Positions 5,677 through 21,979 are shown, numbered from the stretch's first letter. The stretch: DNA of 32,000 nt from Vibrio diazotrophicus (GCF_038452265.1 NZ_CP151843.1:521221-553220), one strand, 5' to 3'. Notes: generated by a model from the letters alone, not told the origin. A program made the numbers and translations.

Positions 5677-5704
5677 ATTTAACATAACATACATAATGCG
5701 CACT
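5677..5704 (-). other. dif: dif site (XerC/XerD chromosome dimer resolution site)
   Basis: ATTTAACATAACATACATAATGCGCACT is the reverse complement of AGTGCGCATTA-TGTATG-TTATGTTAAAT. As far as I recall this is 28/28 identical to V. cholerae dif1. It differs from E. coli dif at 3 positions by my count. Confidence 0.85.
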
Positions 5705-5729
5705 TAGGTATGAGCTATTTTAAAATGTC

Positions 5730-6041
5730 CTATGCGGATGTTTTCCTTAATCCAATGTCTAACGGCTTGTCTTCTAAGGCTTCCAGTATCATTCCAAAGC
5801 GCTTTAGCTCTAAGCCGCCAAAGTTATTCACGGCGTAACTTGAACTGTGTGGCGTGTAACTTCCTGCTGCGTATGGCTCTTGGTCTTTCTCAAGCGTCAG
5901 TTTCATTTCGACTGGGAACTTACCACCTAGATGCGCGTAAGCGATTTGTTCGTAGATGATTCGCCCTGGGCGATCTTCTTTGCTTGGTATGTTTCGAGTT
6001 TCAACGCGAACGTTTTCTGGGAAGATTTCGATTTTAAGCAT
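5730..6041 (-). CDS. Filamentous-phage gene V-type ssDNA-binding protein
   Basis: MLKIEIFPENVRVETR...IYEQIAYAHLGGKFPVEMKLTLEKDQEPYAAGSYTPHSSSYAVNNFGGLELKR aligns along its length with M13 gVp (MIKVEIKPSQ...NEQLCYVDLGNEYPVLVKITLDEGQPAYAPGLYTVHLSSFKVGQFGSLMIDR). Confidence 0.85.
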   Translation of the reverse strand: MLKIEIFPENVRVETRNIPSKEDRPGRIIYEQIAYAHLGGKFPVEMKLTLEKDQEPYAAGSYTPHSSSYAVNNFGGLELKRFGMILEALEDKPLDIGLRKTSA

Positions 6042-6133
6042 GTGTTATTCCTCGTGTCGTCATCGTTCTGCATGCGTGCCCGCGCGTCTGCGACACACAA
6101 TGCACACATTTCAGAACTTATGCTGATATTTCT

Positions 6134-7276
6134 CTATGCGATTGCTTTAAATGGTAAAACGTTAGATTTCTCTACAACCGGTAATTGATACCAGTCTGGT
6201 ATGCCCAACGCTTCAACTTCTATGACTTCTGAACGTCTGAGTGTTGGACAGATACGTGTCGCATCAAACGGTAAAGCTATATCGATACCGATGCTTTTTA
6301 GTCGTGGTCGATGCACATAATATTGGCTGTTTTTCTCGATTTTTTGTCCAAGTTGCCACATCAACGCAACGCTTTGAGTCGTATTGGCTGCCAGTCTGCT
6401 GTTTACGATTCCTTGTTCAAGTAGTTGATCTGATATCGATTTATGCGTGTCATGAGTTGCGGTCAGTGTATTCATAGTTTTCTCAAGATCTTTTATATGT
6501 TCGATGAAGTCTTCTAGCGTGGTTTTTCCGTAAAACTGTAAGTTATATCGTTTTAAATGCTTCTGGCTTAATTGGTGTTCTTCTCGAACGACACCATGCT
6601 GCTCGCAGTATGAGATGAGTTTTTCTACGTAGTTAAGCTGTTCTTCTGATACGCCGTCTTTTTTGCGTTTATCTTTTCGTAAGTGATTCTTTAGTTCGTG
6701 TGCTTTAGAGTAGATTTTCGATAGTTTCCAAGAACGTTTTCCCCAGTAGCAACTGGTAAAATCAGGATAAGGCGTTGGCATTCTACTACGACCGAGGGTT
6801 GTTGATGACATTGCCCGTATAAACGTAACTTCTCTGCCCTTGCCTACTTTATGGTTTCGAGTCCAGTCTATACGTGTAATTTCAGCACCATCCCCAATAA
6901 GACGTGGCTTTTTATCTTCTGGAGTTTGACCGAAGTAAACCTTTGTATTCGCAGTAAAAGGTGGAAGATTAAATTTAGCTAAGATGTGATTGTATATATC
7001 AATACATTCATCCAGTGACCGAAGACCAAAGAGATTATCCATACGTTGCCATCGTGACGGGTTACCTTCGATTCTAACGGTGAAGCCATCACAACGAACC
7101 TTCAATGTGGTACTAAATGAACCTTCGAGCCCTTTAGTTTTTACGAACGATGAAAGCCGTTCACCTGTTTCTGAATCGATTTCTTCCATGACACTTTTAC
7201 CCACGAGTGGCAAACCACCCTCAGGATAAAATTGTTGGACTGTTAACCAGTCGATGAAGAAATTTAGCACTCTCAA
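6134..7276 (-). CDS. Rolling-circle replication initiator (gII/RstA-like, Rep_trans type)
   Basis: 380 aa. It has the N-terminal FIDWLTV motif and sits immediately upstream of gV and divergent from a repressor gene, like rstA. The start codon is uncertain (TTG at 7276 or GTG at 7270). Confidence 0.8.
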   Translation of the reverse strand: MRVLNFFIDWLTVQQFYPEGGLPLVGKSVMEEIDSETGERLSSFVKTKGLEGSFSTTLKVRCDGFTVRIEGNPSRWQRMDNLFGLRSLDECIDIYNHILAKFNLPPFTANTKVYFGQTPEDKKPRLIGDGAEITRIDWTRNHKVGKGREVTFIRAMSSTTLGRSRMPTPYPDFTSCYWGKRSWKLSKIYSKAHELKNHLRKDKRKKDGVSEEQLNYVEKLISYCEQHGVVREEHQLSQKHLKRYNLQFYGKTTLEDFIEHIKDLEKTMNTLTATHDTHKSISDQLLEQGIVNSRLAANTTQSVALMWQLGQKIEKNSQYYVHRPRLKSIGIDIALPFDATRICPTLRRSEVIEVEALGIPDWYQLPVVEKSNVLPFKAIA

Positions 7277-7379
7277 AAACCTGTCAAGTATATAAATATA
7301 TATCTGGATGAATACTTTTATTTACCCTAACATAAGAGTGTAGAAATGTGTATGTATAATTAAATTAAGGTTTACTTTT
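7277..7379. promoter_or_regulatory. Divergent promoter/operator region between Rep and the XRE repressor
   Basis: 103-bp AT-rich spacer between divergent genes. TATAAT at 7355-7360 lies upstream of the XRE gene, and AAGG is 9 nt before its ATG. The layout is analogous to the rstR-rstA intergenic region. Confidence 0.5.
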
Positions 7380-7787
7380 ATGGTTAATATGATGATTAAA
7401 GATGTACTTAAAACGGCTAGAAATGAACTTAATCTAAGTCAGGAAGAAGTTGCAGAAGCGATAGGAATTACCAAGCAAACATACTTGAAATGGGAAAATG
7501 GAACGACTGAACCAAAAGCTACTCAAGTTGTTCAGTTAAGTAACGTTCTAAAGATTACACCTAATGAAATTTGCTCTGGCATTCGCAATAAGAGAATGAA
7601 TTTGGAAGAGTTCATTTTAAACACAGCTATGGCTAAAGTTCCAAGCGAAGTAATTACCATGTACTCATGGAAAATGCTCCCTGATCATGTGGAGTTTTTC
7701 AGTAAAATTAATGGGTTAACTGAAGAAGAGTACTACTCAAGCTATGGTGAAGTTGGTTCAATAGAAGCTAAATTTAAGGGCGCGTGA
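7380..7787 (+). CDS. XRE-family HTH repressor (RstR-like position)
   Basis: LKTARNELNLSQEEVAEAIGITKQTYLKWENGTTEPKATQVVQLSNVLKITPNEI is a classic Cro/CI HTH. The gene is divergent from Rep. Confidence 0.8.
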   Translation: MVNMMIKDVLKTARNELNLSQEEVAEAIGITKQTYLKWENGTTEPKATQVVQLSNVLKITPNEICSGIRNKRMNLEEFILNTAMAKVPSEVITMYSWKMLPDHVEFFSKINGLTEEEYYSSYGEVGSIEAKFKGA

Positions 7788-7898
7788 TTCCGGAAGTCCG
7801 GAGTTAGTTCGGGTATAACAGGAACCCGAACCGCTTCGCGCCTTCTTCCTCCTCCTCAGTCGTCGTCGTCGTCATCCTGCGCTCAGGTTTACAGGCAC

Positions 7899-7922
7899 AA
7901 AAAACGGCAGTGAAAACTGCCG
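7899..7922 (-). terminator. Rho-independent terminator of the 83-aa gene
   Basis: On the minus strand: CGGCAG-TTTTCA-CTGCCG followed by TTTTTTG. Confidence 0.6.
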
Positions 7923-8014
7923 CGCGATTGACGTCTACGTAAAGTCGAATTATGAGAGCGCTTGGCTACTCATTTTCTCTCTACACGCGAGCGTATAGCA
8001 GAGAAAATCGAGCT

Positions 8015-8263
8015 TCATAAAAGATTAGTATCAGCACATATAAATATAGTGCCTTCCTTCTCATTTTTTTGAATAGTTAGAGTAGATTTCCCTTCACAGA
8101 ATTGCTCCAAGCGAGGTTTGGCAATTTCTAGTTCGCTTAAAAATTCTTCCCAAGATTGATCATCCTTTTTATCAAAAATAGTTGGGGGAAAGGCTCCAAG
8201 TTGCACACGCTTACTATAAAGATTCTCTATTGCTTTTAAAAAACAATTATCCTGATAAGTCAT
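8015..8263 (-). CDS. hypothetical small acidic protein (82 aa; occupies the rstC-like slot)
   Basis: ATG at 8263 is preceded by AAGGA. No motif recognised. Terminator downstream. Confidence 0.55.
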   Translation of the reverse strand: MTYQDNCFLKAIENLYSKRVQLGAFPPTIFDKKDDQSWEEFLSELEIAKPRLEQFCEGKSTLTIQKNEKEGTIFICADTNLL

Positions 8264-8326
8264 CAATTTATCCTTAAGTTATGTCCTTAACCCAATATAG
8301 CAGTTTTTTTTAGAACAGAGTGCTTA

Positions 8327-8354
8327 AGTACGCATTATGCAATTTATATTACGG
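8327..8354 (+). other. Internal inverted dif-like site (attP partner arm)
   Basis: AGTACGCATTA-TGCAAT-TTATATTACGG. The XerC arm matches 10/11 and the XerD arm 7/11. It is in opposite orientation to the junction site 130 nt away. Confidence 0.6.
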
Positions 8355-8484
8355 GCTTTCATGGCAAAGAGATTCTCTCTCCTAGCATCTACGCAGCTTA
8401 GGCTGCGAGAATGAGCAAGTCTTTCGCCCACTCTTTGCTGCTTCAAGGTCGCCAGTGCTTACGCAATGGTACTGACGACAAACC

Positions 8485-8516
8485 ACTCAACATAAATCAT
8501 AACCATAATGCGCACT
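8485..8516 (-). other. Junction Xer site between satellite copies
   Basis: Reverse complement AGTGCGCATTA-TGGTTATGAT-TTATGTTGAGT. The XerC arm matches 11/11, the spacer is 10 bp, and the XerD-like arm matches 9/11. Confidence 0.7.
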
Positions 8517-8541
8517 TAGGTATGAGCTATTTTAAAATGTC

Positions 8542-8853
8542 CTATGCGGATGTTTTCCTTAATCCAATGTCTAACGGCTTGTCTTCTAAGGCTTCCAGTA
8601 TCATTCCAAAGCGCTTTAGCTCTAAGCCGCCAAAGTTATTCACGGCGTAACTTGAACTGTGTGGCGTGTAACTTCCTGCTGCGTATGGCTCTTGGTCTTT
8701 CTCAAGCGTCAGTTTCATTTCGACTGGGAACTTACCACCTAGATGCGCGTAAGCGATTTGTTCGTAGATGATTCGCCCTGGGCGATCTTCTTTGCTTGGT
8801 ATGTTTCGAGTTTCAACGCGAACGTTTTCTGGGAAGATTTCGATTTTAAGCAT
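8542..8853 (-). CDS. gene V-type ssDNA-binding protein (copy 2)
   Basis: Translation identical to 5730..6041. Confidence 0.85.
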   Translation of the reverse strand: MLKIEIFPENVRVETRNIPSKEDRPGRIIYEQIAYAHLGGKFPVEMKLTLEKDQEPYAAGSYTPHSSSYAVNNFGGLELKRFGMILEALEDKPLDIGLRKTSA

Positions 8854-8945
8854 GTGTTATTCCTCGTGTCGTCATCGTTCTGCATGCGTGCCCGCGCGTC
8901 TGCGACACACAATGCACACATTTCAGAACTTATGCTGATATTTCT

Positions 8946-10088
8946 CTATGCGATTGCTTTAAATGGTAAAACGTTAGATTTCTCTACAACCGGTAATTGA
9001 TACCAGTCTGGTATGCCCAACGCTTCAACTTCTATGACTTCTGAACGTCTGAGTGTTGGACAGATACGTGTCGCATCAAACGGTAAAGCTATATCGATAC
9101 CGATGCTTTTTAGTCGTGGTCGATGCACATAATATTGGCTGTTTTTCTCGATTTTTTGTCCAAGTTGCCACATCAACGCAACGCTTTGAGTCGTATTGGC
9201 TGCCAGTCTGCTGTTTACGATTCCTTGTTCAAGTAGTTGATCTGATATCGATTTATGCGTGTCATGAGTTGCGGTCAGTGTATTCATAGTTTTCTCAAGA
9301 TCTTTTATATGTTCGATGAAGTCTTCTAGCGTGGTTTTTCCGTAAAACTGTAAGTTATATCGTTTTAAATGCTTCTGGCTTAATTGGTGTTCTTCTCGAA
9401 CGACACCATGCTGCTCGCAGTATGAGATGAGTTTTTCTACGTAGTTAAGCTGTTCTTCTGATACGCCGTCTTTTTTGCGTTTATCTTTTCGTAAGTGATT
9501 CTTTAGTTCGTGTGCTTTAGAGTAGATTTTCGATAGTTTCCAAGAACGTTTTCCCCAGTAGCAACTGGTAAAATCAGGATAAGGCGTTGGCATTCTACTA
9601 CGACCGAGGGTTGTTGATGACATTGCCCGTATAAACGTAACTTCTCTGCCCTTGCCTACTTTATGGTTTCGAGTCCAGTCTATACGTGTAATTTCAGCAC
9701 CATCCCCAATAAGACGTGGCTTTTTATCTTCTGGAGTTTGACCGAAGTAAACCTTTGTATTCGCAGTAAAAGGTGGAAGATTAAATTTAGCTAAGATGTG
9801 ATTGTATATATCAATACATTCATCCAGTGACCGAAGACCAAAGAGATTATCCATACGTTGCCATCGTGACGGGTTACCTTCGATTCTAACGGTGAAGCCA
9901 TCACAACGAACCTTCAATGTGGTACTAAATGAACCTTCGAGCCCTTTAGTTTTTACGAACGATGAAAGCCGTTCACCTGTTTCTGAATCGATTTCTTCCA
10001 TGACACTTTTACCCACGAGTGGCAAACCACCCTCAGGATAAAATTGTTGGACTGTTAACCAGTCGATGAAGAAATTTAGCACTCTCAA
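8946..10088 (-). CDS. Rolling-circle replication initiator (copy 2)
   Basis: Translation identical to 6134..7276. Confidence 0.8.
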   Translation of the reverse strand: MRVLNFFIDWLTVQQFYPEGGLPLVGKSVMEEIDSETGERLSSFVKTKGLEGSFSTTLKVRCDGFTVRIEGNPSRWQRMDNLFGLRSLDECIDIYNHILAKFNLPPFTANTKVYFGQTPEDKKPRLIGDGAEITRIDWTRNHKVGKGREVTFIRAMSSTTLGRSRMPTPYPDFTSCYWGKRSWKLSKIYSKAHELKNHLRKDKRKKDGVSEEQLNYVEKLISYCEQHGVVREEHQLSQKHLKRYNLQFYGKTTLEDFIEHIKDLEKTMNTLTATHDTHKSISDQLLEQGIVNSRLAANTTQSVALMWQLGQKIEKNSQYYVHRPRLKSIGIDIALPFDATRICPTLRRSEVIEVEALGIPDWYQLPVVEKSNVLPFKAIA

Positions 10089-10191
10089 AAACCTGTCAAG
10101 TATATAAATATATATCTGGATGAATACTTTTATTTACCCTAACATAAGAGTGTAGAAATGTGTATGTATAATTAAATTAAGGTTTACTTTT
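10089..10191. promoter_or_regulatory. Divergent promoter/operator region (copy 2)
   Basis: Identical to 7277..7379. Confidence 0.5.
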
Positions 10192-10599
10192 ATGGTTAAT
10201 ATGATGATTAAAGATGTACTTAAAACGGCTAGAAATGAACTTAATCTAAGTCAGGAAGAAGTTGCAGAAGCGATAGGAATTACCAAGCAAACATACTTGA
10301 AATGGGAAAATGGAACGACTGAACCAAAAGCTACTCAAGTTGTTCAGTTAAGTAACGTTCTAAAGATTACACCTAATGAAATTTGCTCTGGCATTCGCAA
10401 TAAGAGAATGAATTTGGAAGAGTTCATTTTAAACACAGCTATGGCTAAAGTTCCAAGCGAAGTAATTACCATGTACTCATGGAAAATGCTCCCTGATCAT
10501 GTGGAGTTTTTCAGTAAAATTAATGGGTTAACTGAAGAAGAGTACTACTCAAGCTATGGTGAAGTTGGTTCAATAGAAGCTAAATTTAAGGGCGCGTGA
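10192..10599 (+). CDS. XRE-family HTH repressor (copy 2)
   Basis: Translation identical to 7380..7787. Confidence 0.8.
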   Translation: MVNMMIKDVLKTARNELNLSQEEVAEAIGITKQTYLKWENGTTEPKATQVVQLSNVLKITPNEICSGIRNKRMNLEEFILNTAMAKVPSEVITMYSWKMLPDHVEFFSKINGLTEEEYYSSYGEVGSIEAKFKGA

Positions 10600-10710
10600 T
10601 TCCGGAAGTCCGGAGTTAGTTCGGGTATAACAGGAACCCGAACCGCTTCGCGCCTTCTTCCTCCTCCTCAGTCGTCGTCGTCGTCATCCTGCGCTCAGGT
10701 TTACAGGCAC

Positions 10711-10734
10711 AAAAAACGGCAGTGAAAACTGCCG
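10711..10734 (-). terminator. Rho-independent terminator (copy 2)
   Basis: Identical to 7899..7922. Confidence 0.6.
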
Positions 10735-10826
10735 CGCGATTGACGTCTACGTAAAGTCGAATTATGAGAGCGCTTGGCTACTCATTTTCTCTCTACACGC
10801 GAGCGTATAGCAGAGAAAATCGAGCT

Positions 10827-11075
10827 TCATAAAAGATTAGTATCAGCACATATAAATATAGTGCCTTCCTTCTCATTTTTTTGAATAGTTAGAGTAGATT
10901 TCCCTTCACAGAATTGCTCCAAGCGAGGTTTGGCAATTTCTAGTTCGCTTAAAAATTCTTCCCAAGATTGATCATCCTTTTTATCAAAAATAGTTGGGGG
11001 AAAGGCTCCAAGTTGCACACGCTTACTATAAAGATTCTCTATTGCTTTTAAAAAACAATTATCCTGATAAGTCAT
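10827..11075 (-). CDS. hypothetical small acidic protein (copy 2)
   Basis: Translation identical to 8015..8263. Confidence 0.55.
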   Translation of the reverse strand: MTYQDNCFLKAIENLYSKRVQLGAFPPTIFDKKDDQSWEEFLSELEIAKPRLEQFCEGKSTLTIQKNEKEGTIFICADTNLL

Positions 11076-11138
11076 CAATTTATCCTTAAGTTATGTCCTT
11101 AACCCAATATAGCAGTTTTTTTTAGAACAGAGTGCTTA

Positions 11139-11166
11139 AGTACGCATTATGCAATTTATATTACGG
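11139..11166 (+). other. Internal inverted dif-like site (copy 2)
   Basis: Identical to 8327..8354. Confidence 0.6.
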
Positions 11167-11296
11167 GCTTTCATGGCAAAGAGATTCTCTCTCCTAGCAT
11201 CTACGCAGCTTAGGCTGCGAGAATGAGCAAGTCTTTCGCCCACTCTTTGCTGCTTCAAGGTCGCCAGTGCTTACGCAATGGTACTGACGACAAACC

Positions 11297-11328
11297 ACTC
11301 AACATAAATCATAACCATAATGCGCACT
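11297..11328 (-). other. Junction Xer site between satellite copy 2 and the prophage
   Basis: Same 32 bp as 8485..8516. The sequence to the right then switches to GATTAATGGATTGTT, which is prophage-specific. Confidence 0.7.
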
Positions 11329-11677
11329 GATTAATGGATTGTTGAATCATACCATATCCCATAACAATTGCTCCGTAACTCATTGAAAACCTTTGTAATC
11401 CGTACTTACTGAACTTTTTTGCCATACGCTCCCAGACCTCTTTTGAGATCACACTTTTGCTGCGGTCAACGTGACAACCAATGAGTGCCAGTTCTGGTGC
11501 TATTTTTGTTTTTTCAGCCAGAAAAATTGCTTGTTCATCAGACATATAGCGCTTTCCTTTGCGAAATTCACAGATTCTAGTCGCTGGAACCTCTAAATCC
11601 TGCGCAATTTGCTTGTCTTGTTGGTAGTTTTGCGCCGTTTTATAGGCTTCAATCAGCAAGTTTTGATACATGGACAA
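11309..11677 (-). CDS. Phage HTH transcriptional regulator (repressor-like), divergent from the Rep operon
   Basis: 122 aa. It has an HTH-like segment DKQIAQDLEVPATRICEFRKGKRYMSDEQAIFLA. The last codons and the stop cross the att junction. Confidence 0.6.
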   Translation of the reverse strand: MSMYQNLLIEAYKTAQNYQQDKQIAQDLEVPATRICEFRKGKRYMSDEQAIFLAEKTKIAPELALIGCHVDRSKSVISKEVWERMAKKFSKYGLQRFSMSYGAIVMGYGMIQQSINQCALWL

Positions 11678-11797
11678 TCCTCATTTTTTACCATTTTTGG
11701 CTAATAATCAGCACTTTGAGCGTATTGCAATTACCACTATCGGTAATCTAATCTCTAGCGAAATACAGCAATTCGATTATAGGCTGGGATTCGATAA

Positions 11798-12016
11798 ATG
11801 CTCAAGCTCACCACCAAGATTTACTATGACTTACTGCCCGATTATTCGGTATCCGTACTTGTGTACGGTTCGACCGAATGGGACGTTTTTCGCAGTATGA
11901 ATCATCTGTGTGCTTGGGCTGACGCCGAAATCCCGTATTACGAGTTGGTCGACATTACCAACACCACCGCGCAACAGCGCATGAACTTAGGGGTTTTCGA
12001 TGGCTGTCAGTATTGA
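11798..12016 (+). CDS. hypothetical small protein upstream of Rep
   Basis: 72-aa ORF that overlaps the Rep start by 17 nt. No motif recognised. Confidence 0.4.
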   Translation: MLKLTTKIYYDLLPDYSVSVLVYGSTEWDVFRSMNHLCAWADAEIPYYELVDITNTTAQQRMNLGVFDGCQY

Positions 12017-13142
12017 TTACCTCTGTTTCACCATGAAAGTAAAAGACTTGCGCCACTGTGCACGTGCTACTTACATGGACACACATCAGCATGACCCTGA
12101 CGTGAAGAAAAAGTCACGCCGTAACACTTTGATGATAAATCCCATAGCGCGCTTTTTCCCACAAGAGCCGGTGTTCAATACCGATTTTCGTGCGCACAGT
12201 GCTGACGACATCGAGGCTTACCGCAATTTCTTCCGCATTCAGTATCAAGAGTATTTAGACCGTTGTTTGAAATTGTTCGTTACTCATGTACTTGGTTTAA
12301 CCATGAACGCGCCGCGTGGGTTTGGTTTTCAGTTCTACACCGAGTCGATGAAACTCACGACCGCAGACGGTGAAGATTTTTGCGGATTTGTGGGGATTGG
12401 TGGCAACCAAGACACGGTGCATTTTCAAATCAATGGTACGGGCTGCAAGCACGTGTTTGCCAAGTTGCAAGCGTGGGAGTTGCACGGCTGGTTATCTAAT
12501 GTGTTAGGCGTTCAACAATTGGCGCGTCTCGACTTAGCGTATGACGATTATCACGGCTTGTTTGATTGTGACTATGCGTTAAAAGCCGCTTATGAGGATG
12601 CGTTTAGAACCGCTTCACGTGGCATTTCTCCAACGGTCAACGAGAACCACAAATACCGCTTTGGTGAGCATGGCGCGAAGCATTACAGCCAAGAAATGGT
12701 CTCGGTCGGCTCTCGAACCTCGCGCATTTACTGGCGCATCTACAACAAAGCGCTGGAGCAGAATCTCGCGCAGAACGGCATGGTCTGGTATCGCACCGAG
12801 TGTGAGCTGAAAAAATGGGACATCGATGCCCTATTAAATCCTGATGGCGCGTTCGCAGCTTTAAATGCCTTTAGTGCGTCTATAAGTAGCGCTCCAGCCT
12901 TTAATACCAAGCCTCGTCCTGAAAAGCGTGTCGCTTGTGATGTGTTAACCGCAGCGTATTGGATGCGCCGCCAGTACGGAAAAATTCTTAATTCGCTGAT
13001 TGAAGAGTTCGACGGCGATATTCCCAAGGTCATTGGATTACTGCAACGGGACGGGCGCAAGTTCAGCTTCCCCGATACCTATACGGCATTAATCCAGTCC
13101 ATTACAAACCGGTCAGTCGACCCATTGGAGTGTAAATCATGA
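12000..13142 (+). CDS. Rolling-circle replication initiator (gII/RstA-like), unrelated in sequence to the satellite Rep
   Basis: 380 aa. N-terminal SIDYLCFT and RLDLAYDDYHG motifs are typical of the Rep_trans family. It heads a tightly coupled operon. Confidence 0.85.
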   Translation: MAVSIDYLCFTMKVKDLRHCARATYMDTHQHDPDVKKKSRRNTLMINPIARFFPQEPVFNTDFRAHSADDIEAYRNFFRIQYQEYLDRCLKLFVTHVLGLTMNAPRGFGFQFYTESMKLTTADGEDFCGFVGIGGNQDTVHFQINGTGCKHVFAKLQAWELHGWLSNVLGVQQLARLDLAYDDYHGLFDCDYALKAAYEDAFRTASRGISPTVNENHKYRFGEHGAKHYSQEMVSVGSRTSRIYWRIYNKALEQNLAQNGMVWYRTECELKKWDIDALLNPDGAFAALNAFSASISSAPAFNTKPRPEKRVACDVLTAAYWMRRQYGKILNSLIEEFDGDIPKVIGLLQRDGRKFSFPDTYTALIQSITNRSVDPLECKS

Positions 13143-13492
13143 GTAAAGGTGTATTTGTGTTAGGCGTGGACATCATTTGGAACAGTTTCCGTGGTGATGG
13201 TGCGCAGCTCAATATCTCGCGTCCACTGCGTGAAATTAACGTGGAGAAGTTCAAACGCCGCACATTAGGCGAATCGGGCGATGTGAATCCGCAGTTTGAC
13301 CACCCTATTCAGCTTGATTACCAGTACGCGCTCAAGCTGGAGAAAACCGGCGCGTTAGTGCCTCGCCGTGAGTACGAATTGAAAATGGAAATCAACCCAA
13401 ACGACCCGTTGTCGGGCGCTATCGTGACCGAGTTGGTGCCGGTTGATGATGAAATCAAAACGCATTTCAAAGCCTCGGGCATGACCAAGTAA
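13139..13492 (+). CDS. probable ssDNA-binding/RstB-position protein
   Basis: 117 aa. Its ATGA overlaps the Rep stop. The assignment rests on position only. Confidence 0.45.
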   Translation: MSKGVFVLGVDIIWNSFRGDGAQLNISRPLREINVEKFKRRTLGESGDVNPQFDHPIQLDYQYALKLEKTGALVPRREYELKMEINPNDPLSGAIVTELVPVDDEIKTHFKASGMTK

Positions 13493-13692
13493 TGAGGCTT
13501 AATTCAGGCACTTATCTCATTACTTGTGACAATAAAGACTGTTCGACCGGCTACCAATTGGTGACGCTGGCAGAGGTGAAAACCGAGCTTGCGCCGCCTT
13601 ATATGACCCTCGACCAACTCAAACAAGTGATGCCTGAAACCGTGTTGTTTCTCGCCATTTGTTGGTGTTGGAAGAAGATTAACCACCACTAA
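13492..13692 (+). CDS. small phage protein with a hydrophobic C-terminus (candidate minor coat or assembly protein)
   Basis: 66 aa. It is coupled by a TAATG overlap and has a C-terminal VLFLAICWCW segment. Confidence 0.45.
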   Translation: MRLNSGTYLITCDNKDCSTGYQLVTLAEVKTELAPPYMTLDQLKQVMPETVLFLAICWCWKKINHH

Positions 13693-13708
13693 AAAAGGAA
13701 ATAATCCT

Positions 13709-13906
13709 ATGAAAACGATGAATGTAAAACGTGTTGTCTTGGCTTCGGCTCTTGTTATGGCTTCTGGCGCGGCGTCTGCTGCGGCTCCTGATGTGACAAG
13801 CGCAGTTGCCAGTATTGGCGAGTTTGGCGTGGTCATTGGCACGCTGGGCGGCGCTTATCTGTTGCTCACCATTGCGAAAAAAGCATGGGGCAAAATCGGC
13901 GGTTAA
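13709..13906 (+). CDS. Major coat protein (pVIII-like)
   Basis: 65 aa. A signal peptide ending ASGAASA is followed by a ~40-aa mature part with a hydrophobic core (GVVIGTLGGAYLLLTIA) and a basic tail (KKAWGKIGG). A strong terminator follows directly, as in Ff phages. Confidence 0.8.
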   Translation: MKTMNVKRVVLASALVMASGAASAAAPDVTSAVASIGEFGVVIGTLGGAYLLLTIAKKAWGKIGG

Positions 13907-13928
13907 AGTCGCCTTTGCTTGCTGACTC

Positions 13929-13955
13929 AAGGGCTGTGTATTCAGCCCTTTTTTG
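13929..13955 (+). terminator. Rho-independent terminator after the major coat gene
   Basis: AAGGGCTG-TGTATT-CAGCCCTT followed by TTTTG. Confidence 0.7.
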
Positions 13956-13976
13956 ATCGAACTTGAGGGTTTAAGG

Positions 13977-15521
13977 ATGGCACGTTATGACGTTAGAAAT
14001 GTATGTAATTACGGTGTTCTTATTGGGTTTATTTGTATTGCACTCTTAACCAGCGTGAATACTTATGCCAATCAACCGGCTAGATGGGTACTTGCCAGCA
14101 TTAAGCCTCTCGATTGCAGCTTCAAACCTTATGAAGACAAGTCCGTGTGTGTACAGCGTACTGATGAAGAAGCCGCTAAACGTATGGCAAATAATCCCGA
14201 TGAGAACTACATCCGTGTTGGTGAAATACGCAACATTGAGGAGCGCTACGGCGGCTCTCTGTTGCTGGCATCGATAGATTATGAGCGTTGGGTATTGTCC
14301 AATGCGAGTAATGCTGAAAATTGTGCTCAAGGTGAGTATCCGAAATACCCTGCGGTACGGTGTGAACCTCCGCCGCCCACCTGTGACGATCCTAAGTTCC
14401 AAAAAGAGTTTGAGCAGGCACAATACGCTTGTCAGATTGGCAACCCTAACACGCAGTTATGGACAACCGATTATCAATGGTCTTGCCAGGATGTGACCGG
14501 ACAACATCCCAACATCGTTTCAAGCTGCAACTATGTGCCCAGCGACTGCATCGTTGGCTTAACGTGTGAAAAAGCACCCAAAGATGTTGCCTATTGTGAC
14601 CCGAGCAAAGAGACGTGCGCCCTGCCACCGAAAACCGAAAAGACCAATGAACCTATCCCTGATTTGCCGCCCCTTGATGGTTCAAACAATGGTGCCGGTA
14701 ATGGCTCAACTGGCACAGGCGCAAACGTCCCCACGAATAACCCGAACTTCTGCGACTTGAATCCGCAGCTGTGTGAGAAACAACAGCCGCCAGAAGCAAT
14801 GCCTGAGCCAAATCCCACACCGACTGAAAAGCCTGAGAATACGGAACTGTCAGCCGGTGACAATGCGATAGTTGGGGAAGTGTCACTCTCTAATCAGCAT
14901 CTGGAGAACGTCAACAGCAACTTAAAAAGCCTCGGCGGTCAGCTGCTTGAACAGCTTTCGCGTGGCAATGAGTTTTCCCAGCATCAACTTGGGGTAATGC
15001 GTGAAATGCTGGAGCATCTTATCCAAGGCGATAACAGTGCGCTGATTCCCAATGACACTGGCAAAGAAGAAAAGCCCAAAGAAGAGGAGCAAGAGAAAAC
15101 CGACCCTCCGATGGCCAACGCCGATTGTGACAAATCGATATTTGAATGTCGCGGTGATGTCATTCAATGCGCCCTGCTCAAAGTTCAGTATGAGGATACC
15201 TGCACCGTTGCCGAGTTCGCGCAGTTAGAAGACGCCTTCAAGGACATTAAGTTACTCAACAATGAAGCGCTGCTGGTTCAGAAAGACAGCATCGATTACT
15301 CACGCATGAATCAGAAGTACCTCAATGGCGGTGTGTCCTTTGGTAGTGGTGCTTGTCCTGCGCCTGAACGCATTTCGTTTCGCGCCTTTGGTGACAGTAA
15401 AACTATTGAGTTTAAGTTTGATCCCGCTTGTCGCTATGCAGAGTTATTACGCCCCCTATTGATCGCCTTTGCGTGGTTAACGGGTTTGTTCATCATCGGT
15501 CGCACACAAGGAGCCGTTTAA
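13977..15521 (+). CDS. pIII-like minor coat / receptor-binding protein
   Basis: Signal/TM segment (VLIGFICIALLTSVNTYA), Cys-rich N-terminal domains, Gly/Asn- and Pro-rich linkers (NNGAGNGSTGTGAN; PPEAMPEPNPTPTEKPE) and a C-terminal membrane anchor (LLIAFAWLTGLFIIG). The ATG at 13977 follows AAGG. Confidence 0.7.
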   Translation: MARYDVRNVCNYGVLIGFICIALLTSVNTYANQPARWVLASIKPLDCSFKPYEDKSVCVQRTDEEAAKRMANNPDENYIRVGEIRNIEERYGGSLLLASIDYERWVLSNASNAENCAQGEYPKYPAVRCEPPPPTCDDPKFQKEFEQAQYACQIGNPNTQLWTTDYQWSCQDVTGQHPNIVSSCNYVPSDCIVGLTCEKAPKDVAYCDPSKETCALPPKTEKTNEPIPDLPPLDGSNNGAGNGSTGTGANVPTNNPNFCDLNPQLCEKQQPPEAMPEPNPTPTEKPENTELSAGDNAIVGEVSLSNQHLENVNSNLKSLGGQLLEQLSRGNEFSQHQLGVMREMLEHLIQGDNSALIPNDTGKEEKPKEEEQEKTDPPMANADCDKSIFECRGDVIQCALLKVQYEDTCTVAEFAQLEDAFKDIKLLNNEALLVQKDSIDYSRMNQKYLNGGVSFGSGACPAPERISFRAFGDSKTIEFKFDPACRYAELLRPLLIAFAWLTGLFIIGRTQGAV

Positions 15522-15522
15522 T

Positions 15523-15852
15523 ATGCAGTATTTCATTGGATTTTTAGCCACGGTGCTGGTTCCTCTCATTCCCAGCATTGCCAAAGGTCTGGCGACCTAT
15601 GTCGCGCTCTCGGTCGGGTTCTCCTTGGTCGCTTACACTGGAGTGTCGGTGGCTATGGATTCGATAGCCGATTACATACAGTCGAACATGAACGGCGTGA
15701 CACCGAAACTTGCCGCGCTCATGGCGATGGCTGGCGTGGATACCTATATCAACGTGGTGCTCACCTGTGTGGTGTTCTCGTTCACGTTAAACGGGCTCAT
15801 GTCTGCTACCGGCTATCGTCCTTCGTGGCGTAAACCGGTCGACCCAGCGTAA
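15523..15852 (+). CDS. pVI-like minor coat protein
   Basis: 109 aa with several hydrophobic helices, positioned between pIII and pI. Confidence 0.6.
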   Translation: MQYFIGFLATVLVPLIPSIAKGLATYVALSVGFSLVAYTGVSVAMDSIADYIQSNMNGVTPKLAALMAMAGVDTYINVVLTCVVFSFTLNGLMSATGYRPSWRKPVDPA

Positions 15853-15864
15853 GGAGTCAGCGTT

Positions 15865-17193
15865 ATGTTGCACGGTTTCAGTGGCGGTATGGGTACGGGG
15901 AAAAGTCTTAACGCCATCAAGTTTATCATCGAGAACGACAACTTCGCCGACCGTCCTGTGTTCTATCATGGTATTCGGGTGATGCTGCTCGACTACAACG
16001 TGTGTAACAGCTTTCAGGGCTGGCTCTATGGCGTGTATTTCCCAGCAAACAGTCACAACAAAGAGTTAGAAGCGAAACTGTTACGCATCGAGACAGAGCA
16101 ACGTCTGGCAACCCTAGAAGATTTGCCCTATCTGGGTTTTCATTACAAGAAGCACGAACCGTTTAAGCAGTGGCTTTACTGGTTCAAGAAACTGGCATCC
16201 CCTAAGCGCCTCGCCTCGTTTAAAGAAGCCTTAGCCGTGCTTGAACTCGATGAAGAGTCCATCACCTACCAAGACATTGAACACCTGAACCTGTCTTGGA
16301 CATCGTTTGATGATCCAACGGAGATCCACACGCTTCCTGCCGGTTCGGTGATACTGGTTGATGAAGTGCAGAACATTTGGGGCAATCGCACTGCTGGTAA
16401 AACCGTGTCGCCGGATGTGAAGTTCGTGACCACGCACCGGCACAAAGGCATTGATTTGGTCTACATCTCTCAAGACTTTAAAGACGTTGACCAAATCATT
16501 CGTCGGCGTATGCAGTATTACGTCCATTACGAATTCATCGGCGGTGACTGGCTGCATCGATACTTTCACATTGAAGGCTTTGACCCTGCCAATAAAACCG
16601 AACTAGCCAAAGCCGAGAAAGAGAAAGTGAAACGCGATAACAAATACTATGGCGTATATCTCAGCTCGATTAAGCACACGCAAAAAGTCAGGCTCGACCC
16701 GCAGTTAAAGAAAGGCATTATCGGCTTAACCGTTGGCGTGTTGGGTATCAGCGCAGCGGCGTTCTACCTCTATTCGTGGTTTCAAAAACAGGTCACACCG
16801 CCCACGGTCGAGACCGTTCACAGTGAAGCGCCAGCTCCTGAAAGTGCCGAAAATACGCAAGATTTAAAAATGCTGGATATAAACACAGTATATATAGAAG
16901 AATTCCTTCCGCGCTTAGATTCCCTGCCGTTCTCCGCGCCGGTGTATGACTCACTCACGCTCGATGCGAATCAATATCCTGAACTCACTTGTGTGATTGT
17001 GAGAAAGCAATGCAGCTGCTTCACCCAGCAAGGTTCAGCCTATGCCATTCAAGAGAGCGCCTGTTTTAACATTGCTCGCTATGGCTACTTTGACCCGTTT
17101 GAGGCATCCAGCGAGAACCATCAACGCCGAAAAACAGCCCAAAATCGCACTAATAGTGACAATGTCACACTCAACAAAGGTGGACTCTACTAA
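15865..17193 (+). CDS. Zot / pI-type assembly ATPase
   Basis: Walker A GGMGTGKS, Walker B VILVDEVQ and a central TM (IIGLTVGVLGISAAAFYLYSWF). AAGGAG lies 8 nt upstream of the ATG. Confidence 0.85.
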   Translation: MLHGFSGGMGTGKSLNAIKFIIENDNFADRPVFYHGIRVMLLDYNVCNSFQGWLYGVYFPANSHNKELEAKLLRIETEQRLATLEDLPYLGFHYKKHEPFKQWLYWFKKLASPKRLASFKEALAVLELDEESITYQDIEHLNLSWTSFDDPTEIHTLPAGSVILVDEVQNIWGNRTAGKTVSPDVKFVTTHRHKGIDLVYISQDFKDVDQIIRRRMQYYVHYEFIGGDWLHRYFHIEGFDPANKTELAKAEKEKVKRDNKYYGVYLSSIKHTQKVRLDPQLKKGIIGLTVGVLGISAAAFYLYSWFQKQVTPPTVETVHSEAPAPESAENTQDLKMLDINTVYIEEFLPRLDSLPFSAPVYDSLTLDANQYPELTCVIVRKQCSCFTQQGSAYAIQESACFNIARYGYFDPFEASSENHQRRKTAQNRTNSDNVTLNKGGLY

Positions 17194-18380: not shown

Positions 18381-18587
18381 AACAAAGATTCCTGCCCTTG
18401 ATCAACTGTAATTCGCTTATTTAGATACTTTGCATAATCTAGTCACATTATTAAAAATAACCTCTAAACAAACAATACGTTATACTGATAATCTATCACT
18501 GAATTAGTAATTATAAGAAAGCGGTCTACCGGATTGGTTCCGTATAAGAACTGTTAGGGCAATCGTAGTTTGGCGGAAGGGATAAAA

Positions 18588-19295: not shown

Positions 19296-19378
19296 AAATT
19301 TCACATACAAGCATTTAAGAGTGATTCCTAACGCTTGACATTTATCATTCCATCGTTGGGTTTTGTGTTTACGGTAGT

Positions 19379-20089: not shown

Positions 20090-20229
20090 GATGGACTCGC
20101 AAAGCTTGGCTAATTAAAGGGATAAAAACACGAGCCATTTTTTGGTTCGGTTTGGGATTGCGGCTAGTTGGGTATTACCATATCAGTTTTGTCGCCAAGT
20201 CGTATGTAAAAGTAAAAGGCGTAAGACCA

Positions 20230-21162: not shown

Positions 21163-21483
21163 CTCAGGCTAAACTAAGCAACTTTAGTGCATTTCCCCAC
21201 CCCGAAGGGATAAGGGAGCGTGTACGCGACCGAGGCACCAAGCCCACACAAATGCTGAGTGTCTCGTGTCGTTAAATGGCGCGGAGCTTCCCTAGCCTTT
21301 TGTGGCAACATATCCCCCCTTCCTGCCAAGCCTAACGACCTAATAATCTACAGCGTCAAAACTTGCTCATAGCTTTGCAGCTAACGCATAGCGGCTTTCC
21401 GTCTGACTAATAAAGCGCAATTACGATTGAGTGTGTGCTCGGAACGAGCGCACGCACAAGCGTGATGCGCTTGAAGGAAAGGC

Positions 21484-21510
21484 AAAACCCCCGAATCTGT
21501 ATTACGGGGG
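21484..21510 (-). terminator. Rho-independent terminator of the 125-aa regulator gene
   Basis: On the minus strand: CCCCCG-(11-nt loop)-CGGGGG followed by TTTTGCC, about 40 nt after the stop. Confidence 0.6.
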
Positions 21511-21552
21511 TAAATTCCACCGAACTATCGGCGTTCTCTGTTTTGGGGACGT

Positions 21553-21930: not shown

Positions 21931-21979
21931 ATTAATTGACTAATAAATAAAATTTACGCGCATACTAACCGGACATAAT

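Follow-up and report, generated by a model that had tools for sequence, protein, structure and literature searches.

The window analysed here, 32,000 nucleotides of chromosome 1 of Vibrio diazotrophicus, carries at dif1 a perfect direct repeat (5692-11328): two units of 2,812 bp followed by a 13-bp third copy (11316-11328) of the junction sequence CATAATGCGCACT (Table 1). Self-comparison at a period of 2812 gives zero mismatches between 5692-8516 and 8504-11328, in agreement with the two identical copies reported in a preliminary description of this DNA, which closed the array where unit 2 ends (11315). The viral (+) strand of the element is the minus strand of the window, and its GC content is 0.40, against 0.49 in the neighbouring inovirus.

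Table 1. Features of the tandem array and its surroundings (window positions; the second range is the copy in unit 2)
Feature	Position	Strand	Basis
Live chromosomal dif1: XerD arm ATTTAACATAA, 6-nt centre, XerC arm TAATGCGCACT (+ strand reading)	5677..5704	-	exact match
Mini-element unit 1, 2,812 bp	5692..8503	-	exact repeat, period 2812
Gene V-type ssDNA-binding protein (gV)	5730..6041; 8542-8853	-	PF02303 3e-20, phrog_1199 6e-33
Rep, gene II/X family	6134..7276; 8946-10088	-	PF05144 2.8e-14, PF05155 3.8e-11, phrog_702 3e-87, TIGR01629
Putative gene X-like in-frame product, 113 aa from Met268	6134..6475; 8946-9287	-	invariant Met268
Rep/XRE divergent promoter/operator region	7277..7379; 10089-10191	.	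93% identical in L009 only
XRE/RstR-like repressor, divergent from Rep	7380..7787; 10192-10599	+	PF01381 1e-17
Conserved 53-nt block, candidate Rep-specific (+)-strand origin	7788..7840; 10600-10652	-	family-wide conservation
Terminator-like hairpin and T-run, downstream of orf83	7904..7923; 10716-10735	-	
Perfect long hairpin	7959..8012; 10771-10824	-	conserved in V. cholerae units and PE002 phages
orf83/82, acidic orphan cargo gene	8015..8263; 10827-11075	-	RBS AAGGA, ATG 8263, pI 4.7
attP site B, inverted dif-like, AGTACGCATTA-TGCAAT-TTATATTACGG, 6-nt spacer	8327..8354; 11139-11166	+	motif match
attP site A/unit junction: XerC arm, 10-nt spacer, XerD-like arm	8485..8516; 11297-11328	-	curated motif match
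Mini-element unit 2, 2,812 bp, 100% identical to unit 1	8504..11315	-	repeat; contig L063 confirms junction
13-bp crossover core, third copy (XerC arm + TG), array end	11316..11328	-	exact repeat
Complete 'CTX-I'-type inovirus	11329..21931	+	gene content; classification after PMC12715192
XafT-like gene of neighbouring inovirus	21553-21930		
Remnant IMEX: low-GC 336-aa ORF and second XafT-like gene (23469-23825)	21932..23910	-	
Older mini-unit relic: XerC arm and truncated gV (23947-24249)	23911..24249	-	81% nt identity to unit

Profile matches uphold the gene content first described: a gene II-type Rep, a gV, a divergent XRE repressor and an 83-aa open reading frame. Zot/pI, coat, pIII and secretin genes were not found in the unit, nor was a convincing small hydrophobic ORF. 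Rep probably starts at a GTG at 7270, giving 378 aa. Its Met268 is unchanged in 26 homologs, and an internal gene X-like product may begin there, by parallel in position and length with pX of the Ff phages. A search for a solved structure or characterised homolog in this Rep clade found none, and we know of no nick site for it. The ssDNA-binding protein is, as had been proposed, of the true gV type: residues 1-84 match the M13/f1 gene V protein structures in the PDB (E=3e-15). The top NCBIfam model for the repressor is phage_RstR, at 52.7 bits, which lies under the model's cutoff. Rep, gV and the repressor are under strong purifying selection, with dN/dS of 0.04 (Rep, against L009), 0.08 and 0.07 respectively, the range of 0.04-0.08 being found at dS 0.85-1.3 against the V. 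cincinnatiensis relative.

The fourth frame (8015-8266, minus strand) probably has its true start at ATG 8263, which makes the product 82 aa. It is acidic, as had been noted; its assignment to the rstC slot is not supported. No match was found in Pfam, PHROG or PADLOC, there are just three remote relatives among 1.84 billion representatives, and the gene lies beyond attP and is missing from other family members, so that an antirepressor role cannot be claimed.

The array adjoins an exact dif1 site (28/28 bp, with 0 expected by chance), which fits the curated Vibrio dif motif (PMC12715192); the identical 28-bp site lies downstream of gV in relatives. Within the unit, sites A and B pair in the folded viral strand (z=-3.2; 0/200 shuffles fold equally well). 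Homologues of site B, CCGTAACATAA, are present in relatives, and the hairpin fold recurs in L021, L022 and L047, with z=-5.6 and -5.5 in Aliivibrio and V. cholerae relatives. CTX-class attP(+) is defined by spacers of 12 bp and 5-7 bp over about 150 nt (PMC4246890), a definition that the unit's inverted sites, with spacers of 10 and 6 nt, match. The 53-nt block forms two or three hairpins with an invariant TTCCTGT loop, and alignment and structure together reveal 2 compensatory pairs. Its identity is 88-98% across nearly the whole family and the PE002 phages while Rep identity is just 50-62%, it occurs with this Rep clade only, and it is absent from the neighbouring inovirus; its conservation and position make it a candidate Rep origin, so placed that a unit-length ssDNA circle would be released by a tandem pair only. 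The long hairpin, in an intergenic region with z=-4.1, has counterparts in V. cholerae units (96-98% identity) and, after zot, in PE002 phages (85-89%), and may on similar grounds be a packaging signal or minus-strand origin. The Rep/XRE intergenic region is conserved (93% identity) in L009 only, and a search of the unit, that region included, turned up neither a LexA box nor any other induction signal. The flanking dif1, the folded attP(+) hairpin and the placement of the candidate origin lend direct sequence support to the earlier suggestion that the copies follow the tandem logic of CTX-type elements.

A first question is whether the duplication is real. The Logan contig L063 (ERR14335346, four samples) is 2,842 nt long – 2,812 + 30 – self-closing and 100% identical to the unit, a form equally compatible with a tandem array or a circle; assembly GCA_965135895.1 reads through the unit 1/unit 2 junction. 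With the unit-end-to-unit-start junction thus recovered in independent read sets, we reject the assembly artefact that the preliminary description had allowed for. A contig of SRR29761181 ends at window position 5721, a point at which branching of a k=31 graph is expected. In sample SRR29761200 and in the draft GCA_000740015.1 the path is single-copy, and copy number is therefore either polymorphic or collapsed in these data.

The unit has many relatives. Its Rep has more than 400 homologs, many on contigs of 2-4.5 kb, and mini-elements of 2.5-3.7 kb form a clade in Vibrio, Aliivibrio, Photobacterium, Salinivibrio and Shewanella, situated at dif, often in tandem and under strong purifying selection; the family as a whole is distributed over at least seven genera. 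At seven further loci, from Salinivibrio, Aliivibrio, Shewanella, V. parahaemolyticus, V. cincinnatiensis and IMG/VR, the element is repeated in tandem, with 2 to at least 5 near-identical copies. More than 20 loci agree in the order of genes toward dif (repressor, Rep, ssDNA-binding protein, dif), a polarity that fits a strand-specific substrate, and att sites are precise at both element ends, again in more than 20 loci. In a simple NJ tree (two full-length outgroups, no bootstrap) the mini-unit Reps are one clade, apart from the Reps of full-length phages.

These data bear on the possibility that the units are defective remnants: the surviving replication module of a once full-length, now decayed prophage, doubled through unequal crossing-over or an assembly error. 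Degraded IMEXs are frequent at dif – the relic gV and the remnant at 21932-23910 are local examples, and degraded CTX-I elements have been reported (PMC12715192) – and the single copy in GCA_000740015.1 would suit such an origin. Against it stand the intactness of every ORF and the low dN/dS, the precise att sites, the separate Rep clade, and a tandem junction that falls exactly at the Xer crossover core and is verified in independent read sets. We regard this explanation as already largely refuted and its probability as very small.

The preliminary description called the unit RS1-like. As a statement of functional layout this stands: both are small (RS1 is about 2.7-3 kb), with a repressor divergent from a Rep/ssDNA-binding-protein operon and one small extra ORF, and both are without morphogenesis genes. 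RS1 likewise has a CTX-class folded attP, integrates irreversibly at dif1, forms tandem arrays that release ssDNA by rolling circle, and has the same gene polarity toward dif (PMC3545932, PMC4246890). As a statement of kinship it fails, for the core is not homologous. The unit's Rep is of the gene II/X type (PF05144/PF05155), whereas an RstA-type Rep_trans is carried by the neighbouring inovirus; its ssDNA-binding protein is a true gV and not of the DUF1293 type, which is annotated RstB in related V. alginolyticus phage records; and orf83, beyond attP, has no detectable relation to RstC. RS1, moreover, is a recent derivative with about 3 kb in common with its helper, while the unit, part of an old clade that spans several genera, has nothing in common with its neighbour. 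The evidence supports RS1 as an analogue, and not as a relative.

TLCphi is similar in other respects: this satellite has an autonomous rolling-circle module that includes Cri, the Rep after which PF05144 is named, and a repressor acting on Rep; it is integrated at dif1, often in tandem, and served by a heterologous helper, fs2phi (PMC3545932, PMC6744903). It differs in size (about 4.7-5.4 kb), in carrying XafT (DUF3653), a gene family absent from the unit, and in having a single double-stranded attP with a degenerate XerD arm, used in XerD-first integration and excision, where the unit has two inverted CTX-type sites; Cri was compared by family only. PE002-type ('CTX-II') inoviruses of Vibrio cyclitrophicus (PQ189297/PQ189298) share the replication module, in which an HTH repressor is transcribed away from the genes for a Cri-type Rep and an ssDNA-binding protein; the 53-nt block (92%), the intergenic hairpin (85-89%) and attP site A (95% over 38 nt) are collinear with those of the unit. 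These are nevertheless complete phages of 6.4 kb, equipped with coat, pIII, pVI and Zot genes, and their Rep, only about 50% identical to the unit's, is not part of the mini-unit clade. Ff miniphages, defective interfering particles and phagemids are also small, keeping the origin and packaging signal and depending on a helper for virion proteins. They arise de novo in culture, usually without a functional gene II, whereas the units form an integrating lineage, evolutionarily stable and under selection, with Rep, gV and repressor genes of its own.

A further comparison is with pDolos, the 2,926-nt satellite of the Shewanella inovirus Dolos, with a 359-aa Rep, a small repressor, a 109-aa ssDNA-binding protein and small ORFs: a rolling-circle replicon without phage structural genes, from a genus that also hosts the unit's family. 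Experiment has shown that this 2.9-kb plasmid is preferentially packaged by its unrelated inovirus (bioRxiv 10.1101/2023.11.28.569023). It is reported as non-integrating, and its authors state that it has no apparent homology to phage genes; the unit by contrast is dif-integrated, with a CTX-type attP and a clearly phage-type Rep and gV. Together with RS1/KSF-1phi, RS1/VGJphi and TLCphi/fs2phi (PMC3545932), pDolos/Dolos shows heterologous packaging to be established, and the earlier remark of knowing no description of such a satellite-helper pair is overstated.

The element beside the array is, as first stated, an unrelated complete inovirus with a secretin and a different Rep. It encodes a DUF3693 repressor, Rep_trans, a DUF1293 ssDNA-binding protein, coat, pIII-like and pVI proteins, Zot, secretin, cargo and an XafT-like protein, the complete-inovirus set (Rep_trans, DUF1293 protein, Zot, secretin) lying at 11309-18380. 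A weak case can be made for this phage as the specific helper, supplying coat, pI/Zot and secretin in trans to the 2.8-kb circle. It is complete and apparently intact; the exact unit is seen only beside it, in V. diazotrophicus assemblies; the closest relative, in V. cincinnatiensis (Rep 93%), adjoins a degraded element of the same type (DUF3693 repressor, secretin fragments, XafT); and heterologous helpers are the rule for RS1, TLCphi and pDolos. Adjacency itself carries little information, however, because all IMEXs gather at dif1 and co-location is expected of any two of them. The unit's intergenic, origin, hairpin and att sequences have no match in 11329-23910, and the hairpin at 7959-8012 is common to the unit and PE002-type phages, not to this neighbour. 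Among the relatives, an adjacent Zot phage is missing from nine of the ten Pfam-annotated contexts, one of which adjoins a DJR (double jelly-roll) prophage instead, and around most of them the flanking 10 kb contains no inovirus. We consider this specific partnership possible but doubtful.

The neighbour could also mobilise the units directly, its att recombining with the live dif1 to yield a hybrid circle of inovirus and two units that is packaged as one. Hybrid long genomes are described for VGJphi-CTXphi and TLCphi-CTXphi, and the geometry here – a CTX-type element between an excision-competent IMEX att and dif1 – is as described there (PMC4246890, PMC6744903). The locus has two XafT-family genes, paralogs 53% identical that match VC1465_fam; the neighbour's att site has a VGJ-like 7-nt spacer, and the att site listed for the remnant IMEX (23894-23921) has a 7-nt spacer. 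Such co-excision leaves unexplained the selected Rep, gV, origin and folded attP of the family, and the recurrence of tandem copies at loci without such a neighbour; as an explanation in its own right it is rather unlikely, but it could be an addition to the main mechanism.

A further alternative is that the unit replicates autonomously by rolling circle as an integrative, plasmid-like IMEX (of the kind first proposed for pTLC) and is never encapsidated; tandem copies would then arise incidentally as integration recurs, and transmission would be mainly vertical or by other routes. Most relative contexts show no helper, Rep II/X proteins also drive small non-phage plasmids, one family member resides on an 82-kb V. 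tapetis plasmid, and pDolos is stably kept without its phage. Yet to occupy at least seven genera while its cis-block stays nearly unchanged, the family needs efficient horizontal transfer, and the unit has no mobilisation genes. In Ff phages gV sequesters progeny ssDNA for assembly; its retention here, and that of an attP specific for ssDNA, suggest that the element is transmitted at some stage as ssDNA. We judge an encapsidation-free existence quite improbable.

The reading we favour, as reasonably probable, is that the units are tandem prophages of a 2.8-kb filamentous-phage derivative reduced to its replication module, whose ssDNA circle is re-integrated or packaged by a helper. In the circular viral ssDNA the two inverted dif-like sites would fold into the attP(+) hairpin, which XerC/XerD would recombine with dif1, crossing over directly after the XerC arm and TG. 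Integration is proposed to mask attP and so to be irreversible, and to regenerate dif1, so that a second copy can insert beside the first. Once the repressor is relieved, Rep would make its nick in the dif-distal unit, at the 53-nt origin (about 10600-10652), and rolling-circle synthesis would pass through XRE, Rep, gV, the unit junction – restoring an intact attP – orf83 and the hairpins, stopping at the dif-proximal origin (7788-7840). The resulting 2,812-nt circle, coated by gV, could re-integrate or, by analogy with the pairs above, leave the cell in the virion of a helper inovirus resident in the same host, which could be the secretin-encoding neighbour or a phage of PE002/'CTX-II' type with the common intergenic hairpin. 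The unit is, on this evidence, a member of a large, coherent and apparently undescribed lineage, one that probably spreads by borrowing the particle of another filamentous phage.

Shifted by 2,812 bases, the window matches its own sequence without a break (5692-8516 = 8504-11328), which bears out the preliminary description of two identical tandem copies. The array consists of two complete 2,812-bp units, after which their opening 13 bases, CATAATGCGCACT, appear once more; this 13-bp core – an XerC arm plus TG – lies at 5692, 8504 and 11316. The possibility that the duplication is an assembly artefact can be rejected, because three independent data sets support the end-to-start junction of adjacent units. 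A Logan contig (run ERR14335346; in four samples) measures 2,842 nt, that is 2,812 + 30, with a 30-nt terminal overlap and 100% identity to the unit. Assembly GCA_965135895.1 begins 108 nt ahead of the junction between units 1 and 2 and continues across it into unit 2 and the inovirus. Finally, a contig from SRR29761181 ends at window position 5721, precisely the position at which a k=31 graph is bound to branch, provided that the start of the unit has two upstream contexts. A single-copy path – flank, unit, inovirus – is present in one sample (SRR29761200) and in the older draft GCA_000740015.1, and thus copy number is either polymorphic among near-identical isolates or collapsed in those assemblies. 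In different V. diazotrophicus runs, four Logan contigs (L004-L008) all end at window position 5566, 125 nt before dif1.

The gene content first reported for the unit also holds: a gene II/X-type Rep, a gene V-type protein (gV), a divergent XRE repressor and a small acidic ORF (orf83), with morphogenesis genes absent. Both G2P domains and the gene V protein of an Ff-type replication module are present; the latter belongs to the OB-fold class of ssDNA-binding proteins and aligns end to end with solved structures of the M13/f1 gene V protein (E=3e-15). Met268 of Rep is invariant among homologs and, by analogy to Ff, would start a gene-X-like protein of 113 aa; a sequence search of the PDB with Rep returned nothing. 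Pfam and PHROGs reveal no Zot/pI, coat, pIII, pVI or secretin gene in the unit, nor is there a convincing hydrophobic or coat-like mini-ORF. Among NCBIfam models the repressor scores highest with phage_RstR, reaching 52.7 bits where the cutoff is 80. Pfam and PHROGs hold no family match to orf83, which has only three remote relatives; family comparison, the remote-relative search and PADLOC lend no support to its being conserved in the family or serving in defence. No LexA box was found in the unit and no known RNA family in an Rfam scan of 5-25 kb (E<=1), while a promoter scan was uninformative since it gave fewer matches than in shuffles. GC content is 0.40 for the unit and 0.49 for the neighbouring inovirus. 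Measured against V. cincinnatiensis 19-VB00020, dN/dS is 0.04 for Rep, 0.08 for gV and 0.07 for the repressor (dS 0.85-1.3).

Proteins encoded in the flanks are exact matches to V. diazotrophicus, which identifies the host, and the setting is that of dif1. Directly left of unit 1 is ATTTAACATAACATACATAATGCGCACT, an exact 28-bp Vibrio dif1-type site (0 expected by chance), and the flanks – SPOR/ddl/DUF3319/SUI1 to the left, UPF0181/TraF_2/DUF2861/two-component/PNT to the right – are syntenic with the dif1 locus of V. cholerae and V. parahaemolyticus. Att sites mapped with the curated Vibrio motif of PMC12715192, together with XafT-family paralogs, define 5.7-24.3 kb as an array of Xer-exploiting elements (IMEXs) in the order dif1, unit 1, unit 2, a 'CTX-I' inovirus with cargo, a remnant IMEX and a mini-unit relic, after which the chromosome resumes. 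The inovirus is indeed complete, and its Rep is, as claimed at the outset, a different one: it encodes a DUF3693 repressor, a Rep_trans Rep of another lineage, a DUF1293 ssDNA-binding protein, a pIII-like protein, pVI, Zot and a secretin. PADLOC gave only weak coiled-coil matches in its cargo. The presence of two XafT/VC1465-family paralogs indicates that the block after the secretin phage comprises two IMEXs. The relic, from which Rep and the remainder are deleted, shows that this dif1 site has been colonised at least twice by the mini-unit lineage; and since a new IMEX inserts at the live dif, units 1 and 2 arrived last. Three further features of the region deserve mention. At 21921-21931, an XerC-arm-like sequence, TAATGCGCATA, and the start codon of the first XafT-like gene overlap. 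The 336-aa ORF of the remnant IMEX has unusually low GC (0.28) and only weak JetC/DruC coiled-coil matches. A 319-aa tyrosine-recombinase-like gene close to dif1 overlaps the 3' end of ddl and has no counterpart at the syntenic loci of V. cholerae and V. parahaemolyticus; scoring only ~30 bits on XerC/XerD models, its product is not a canonical Xer.

Features of the mini-units and of the surrounding dif1 locus (window coordinates)
Feature	Position	Strand	Remarks
Tyrosine-recombinase-like gene	1884-2843	minus	319 aa
dif1-type site	5677-5704		28 bp
ssDNA-binding protein (gV)	5730-6041	minus	gene V family PF02303
Rep	6134-7276	minus	gene II/X domains PF05144 + PF05155
XRE-type repressor	7380-7787	plus	divergent transcription
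53-nt block	7788-7840		candidate (+)-strand origin
Perfect hairpin	7959-8012		possible packaging signal
orf83, small acidic ORF	8015-8266	minus	likely start ATG 8263, behind AAGGA ribosome-binding site
Site B	8327-8354		inverted, dif-like
Site A	8516-8485	minus	at unit end
'CTX-I'-type inovirus with cargo	11329 to ~21931		complete inovirus at 11309-18380
XafT/VC1465-family paralogs	21553-21930 and 23469-23825	minus	mutual identity 53%
Remnant IMEX, 2 kb	21932-23910		carries 336-aa ORF
VGJ-like att site	23894-23921		29 bp, 7-nt spacer; in neighbouring array
Relic of older mini-unit	23911-24249		XerC arm, 26 nt, then truncated gV; 81% nt identical to unit

The next point is how the units entered this site. 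IMEXs of the CTX class carry a pair of inverted sites, one with a 12-bp and the other with a 5-7-bp spacer, by which the (+) ssDNA folds to an attP(+) of ~150 nt; XerC acts first, the integration cannot be reversed, and thereafter phage DNA comes solely via rolling circle from tandem prophages or RS1 (PMC4246890). Judged by its att sequences, the unit is a member of this class: it is integrated at dif with duplication of the XerC arm and the bases beside it, and has two inverted sites and a predicted dif-mimicking hairpin. Site A consists of an XerC arm, AGTGCGCATTA, a 10-nt spacer, TGGTTATGAT (9-12 nt in relatives), and then TTATGTTGAGT; site B, 134 nt inside site A, reads AGTACGCATTA-TGCAAT-TTATATTACGG, with a 6-nt spacer. 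On the viral strand (the minus strand of the window, and the Rep/gV sense) the two are predicted to pair as an XerC-arm duplex, a central bulge and an XerD-arm duplex, a hairpin with z=-3.2 that 0 of 200 shuffles matched in folding. The same two-site layout and predicted fold recur in the related loci L021, L022 and L047, with z=-5.6 and -2.7 for Aliivibrio and z=-5.5 for V. cholerae. The bases adjoining the XerC arm determine specificity, and the 13-bp repeat agrees with this rule in that its TG corresponds to the two bases beside the XerC arm that are common to the phage site and dif1.

The unit is neither TLC-type nor VGJ-type, having no DUF3653/XafT gene and no single double-stranded attP. 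With TLCphi-type elements it shares a PF05144 (Phage_CRI) rolling-circle initiator and a repressor, in the unit a divergent XRE. However, TLCphi-type elements encode XafT (HTH + DUF3653), whereas the unit lacks DUF3653 – both copies in the window are in the neighbouring IMEXs – and the single double-stranded attP of TLCphi has a degenerate XerD arm, whereas the two inverted sites of the unit have recognisable XerD-like arms. VGJphi differs likewise, in its single 29-bp double-stranded attP and reversible integration. The V. cholerae Rep homolog P0042, considered as a TLC Cri, was ruled out on the same grounds: its context has no XafT and carries CTX-type sites, which makes it a mini-unit at dif1.

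The intergenic region 7788-8014 has strong predicted structure on the viral strand (z=-4.1). At one end of this region is a 53-nt block that is 88-98% identical in nearly all family members and in the nearest deposited phages, PE002A (PQ189297.1) and PE002B (PQ189298.1), complete inoviruses of V. cyclitrophicus, 6.4 kb long, whose replication module is of the same kind. The accompanying Reps are only 50-62% identical and the DNA around the block does not align. The block folds into hairpins that adjoin one another, the loop TTCCTGT being invariant and two of the pairs compensatory, and in a phage collection it was found only together with the Rep clade of the unit; we suggest that it is a candidate Rep-specific (+)-strand origin. 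Another hairpin, at 7959-8012, is perfect; it shows 96-98% identity to its counterpart in V. cholerae units and 85-89% to that in the PE002 phages, which sits just after zot. The packaging signal of Ff phages occupies the corresponding position, and by this analogy the hairpin might, more tentatively, be a packaging signal. Neither the block, the hairpin nor the att region has a match in the neighbouring 11329-23910.

The block is not a feature of CTXphi: the match in AF416590 falls outside the annotated attRS, in an uncharacterised flank with an XRE-like ORF. This flank (AF416590.1, 3731-5728; L051), beside a CTX-type prophage of V. cholerae O139 JS9803, holds the block at 90% identity, an att-region match and the XRE-like ORF, and is probably itself a mini-unit adjoining the CTX prophage. 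As to the PE002 phages, the PE002A record terminates within the block (6367-6398), PE002B holds the intergenic hairpin twice (300-353 and 6544-6598) and the stretch 6365-7239 of PE002B has the block, the hairpin and att site A in an order collinear with the unit. The ends as deposited may thus reflect origin-to-origin replication products or a composite array.

The unit is not an isolated case. More than 400 Rep homologs at >=55% identity occur in Vibrio, Aliivibrio, Photobacterium, Salinivibrio, Moritella, Shewanella and others, and for many of their clusters the longest contig is only 2-4.5 kb. Across 38 loci from species-representative genomes and further contexts, a divergent repressor, Rep and gV are followed by a dif-type site within 30-2,100 nt, and in none of these do morphogenesis genes come directly after Rep-gV. 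The elements span 2.5-3.7 kb and vary in their small cargo. Tandem arrays are frequent, which is consistent with the XerC-catalysed irreversible exchange and rolling-circle output of the CTX class: two copies in V. cincinnatiensis (on a 2.77-Mb contig), in Shewanella atlantica, in an Aliivibrio MAG (plus 15 bp; 100% identical) and in one strain of V. parahaemolyticus (four others have one), with near-identical tandem copies also in two IMG/VR prophage regions. The largest array seen is that of Salinivibrio sp. ES.052 (L012/L013, NZ_FSRI01000003.1), with at least five copies, 99.9-100% identical, of a unit of 3,649 bp on a 678-kb contig that starts and finishes inside the array. An IMG/VR scan gave seven loci, every one a prophage region from an isolate genome, and so bears on integrated copies, not on encapsidation.

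V. cincinnatiensis 19-VB00020 carries the closest relative, with a Rep identity of 93%. A neighbour-joining tree groups the mini-unit Reps into a single clade, with a lowest pairwise identity of 54.6% as against <=51.6% to the Reps of the two available full-length phages; since this tree has no bootstrap and few outgroups (those two phages), monophyly is a lead and not a result. A plasmid collection yielded no close small-plasmid relative of Rep and otherwise only distant (<40%) phage-like replicons. The 82-kb plasmid of Vibrio tapetis (NC_010614.1, 1719-2855; H52/H53) carries an integrated family Rep at 60% identity, which suggests that mini-units can insert into, or ride on, large plasmids. 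In public records several Reps of the family (P0086, P0102, P0116) are labelled 'fumarate reductase', in what looks like a propagated mis-annotation.

The relationship to RS1 requires qualification. As a functional analogy the RS1-like reading of the preliminary description stands; as kinship it does not. RS1 has an RstA-type Rep and RstB, whereas the unit combines a PF05144/PF05155 Rep with PF02303, the Rep_trans/DUF1293 pair being that of the neighbour. With Rep and ssDNA-binding protein from other families, and no relation of orf83 to RstC found by Pfam or PHROGs, the unit is a functional RS1 analogue outside the RS1 family; it shows no DNA match to CTXphi proper. Autonomous inoviruses (Tubulavirales) possess a pI/Zot ATPase and coat proteins, of which the unit has neither. 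The layout of pDolos is similar by its authors' description, but pDolos is episomal and the unit integrated.

A life cycle can be proposed from features that recur across genera: location at dif1, a two-site attP, intact replication genes under selection, absence of virion genes and a junction exactly at the Xer core. The ssDNA circle would fold attP(+) and be integrated at dif1 by XerCD; as integration regenerates dif1, a second circle could integrate beside the first. Rep would nick the origin of the dif-distal unit (~10600-10652), and synthesis would proceed leftward through XRE, Rep, gV, the junction (recreating an intact attP), orf83 and the hairpins, until termination at the dif-proximal origin (7788-7840) released one 2,812-nt circle. 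From a lone prophage synthesis would run off into the chromosome. Downstream of orf83 is a terminator-like hairpin (7923-7904): on a circle or tandem array orf83 would be the last gene of the Rep-gV transcript, before this hairpin, and in a solitary prophage it would be separated from the Rep-gV promoter. Export is assumed to use the virion of a helper inovirus. RS1 is packaged with CTXphi, KSF-1phi or VGJphi and TLCphi with fs2phi (PMC3545932), and pDolos, a 2.9-kb plasmid encoding Rep, repressor and ssDNA-binding protein, is packaged by the Shewanella phage Dolos (bioRxiv 10.1101/2023.11.28.569023). By analogy to these systems we infer that the unit is a phage satellite packaged and transferred by helper virions.

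More than one phage could serve as helper. The adjacent secretin-encoding inovirus, originally put forward as the obvious candidate, is possible but not favoured. The exact unit is found only beside this inovirus, the closest relative adjoins a degraded element of the same type, and known satellites, too, are served by unrelated helpers. Yet neighbour and unit have no cis-elements in common, their co-location follows automatically from both targeting dif1, and an adjacent Zot phage occurs in only one of ten Pfam-annotated contexts of relatives, another having a double jelly-roll prophage. The degraded IMEX in V. cincinnatiensis (L009, 5011-8631) carries a DUF3693 repressor, a ParDE toxin-antitoxin pair, two secretin fragments and a DUF3653 gene; the double jelly-roll prophage (V. 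parahaemolyticus GCA_023081915.1, L055, 1766-9110) is dif-type, with a P2_N/P2_C capsid and DUF3653, and is not an inovirus. The shared hairpin at 7959-8012 points the search for a helper instead toward phages of the PE002, or 'CTX-II', type. The neighbour could also provide a further route, co-excision, by recombining with dif1 such that the units leave as part of a hybrid: it has XafT-family genes and the VGJ-like 29-bp att site, the units lie between that site and dif1, and the geometry matches that by which VGJphi or TLCphi excises CTXphi as a hybrid (PMC4246890, PMC6744903).

Two surveys of Vibrio inoviruses (PMC11630473, PMC12715192) detected elements via Zot/pI or at least four phage markers, and would therefore systematically miss mini-elements; neither mentions elements that lack morphogenesis genes. 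No description of the mini-unit family was found in the full-text literature searched, a coverage that leaves out most subscription journals, such that a prior report is possible. Taken jointly, and held with rather more doubt than conviction, the data may reflect a large, old and unrecognised clade of mini-IMEXs in Vibrionaceae and Shewanella – 2.5-3.7 kb, with repressor, Rep II/X, gV, near-invariant origin and CTX-type folded attP – missed by marker-based finders and living as helper-promiscuous hyperparasites of resident or incoming inoviruses.

To our knowledge, experimental satellite filamentous phage systems are very few: RS1, TLCphi and pDolos. In V. cholerae such satellites influence how the cholera-toxin phage is acquired, and how it turns over, at dif1. 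If minimal dif-integrating satellites do form a conserved lineage across several genera, this lifestyle would be common and not a peculiarity of V. cholerae. Like pDolos, mini-IMEXs may then outcompete their helper for virions, and they may modulate the spread of inoviruses, including toxin-carrying phages at the same dif1. Family members are found at dif1 in both V. cholerae and V. parahaemolyticus, one of them beside a CTX prophage (the AF416590 flank), and may thus interact with medically relevant IMEXs. The family informs two questions – how tandem arrays enable output from non-excisable prophages, and what determines the choice of helper – and offers sequence handles on both in the near-invariant 53-nt candidate origin, the folded attP and natural strains with one or two copies. 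The main interest is not the proposed satellite-helper pair, but the widespread, coherent and testable lineage that a single case has opened.
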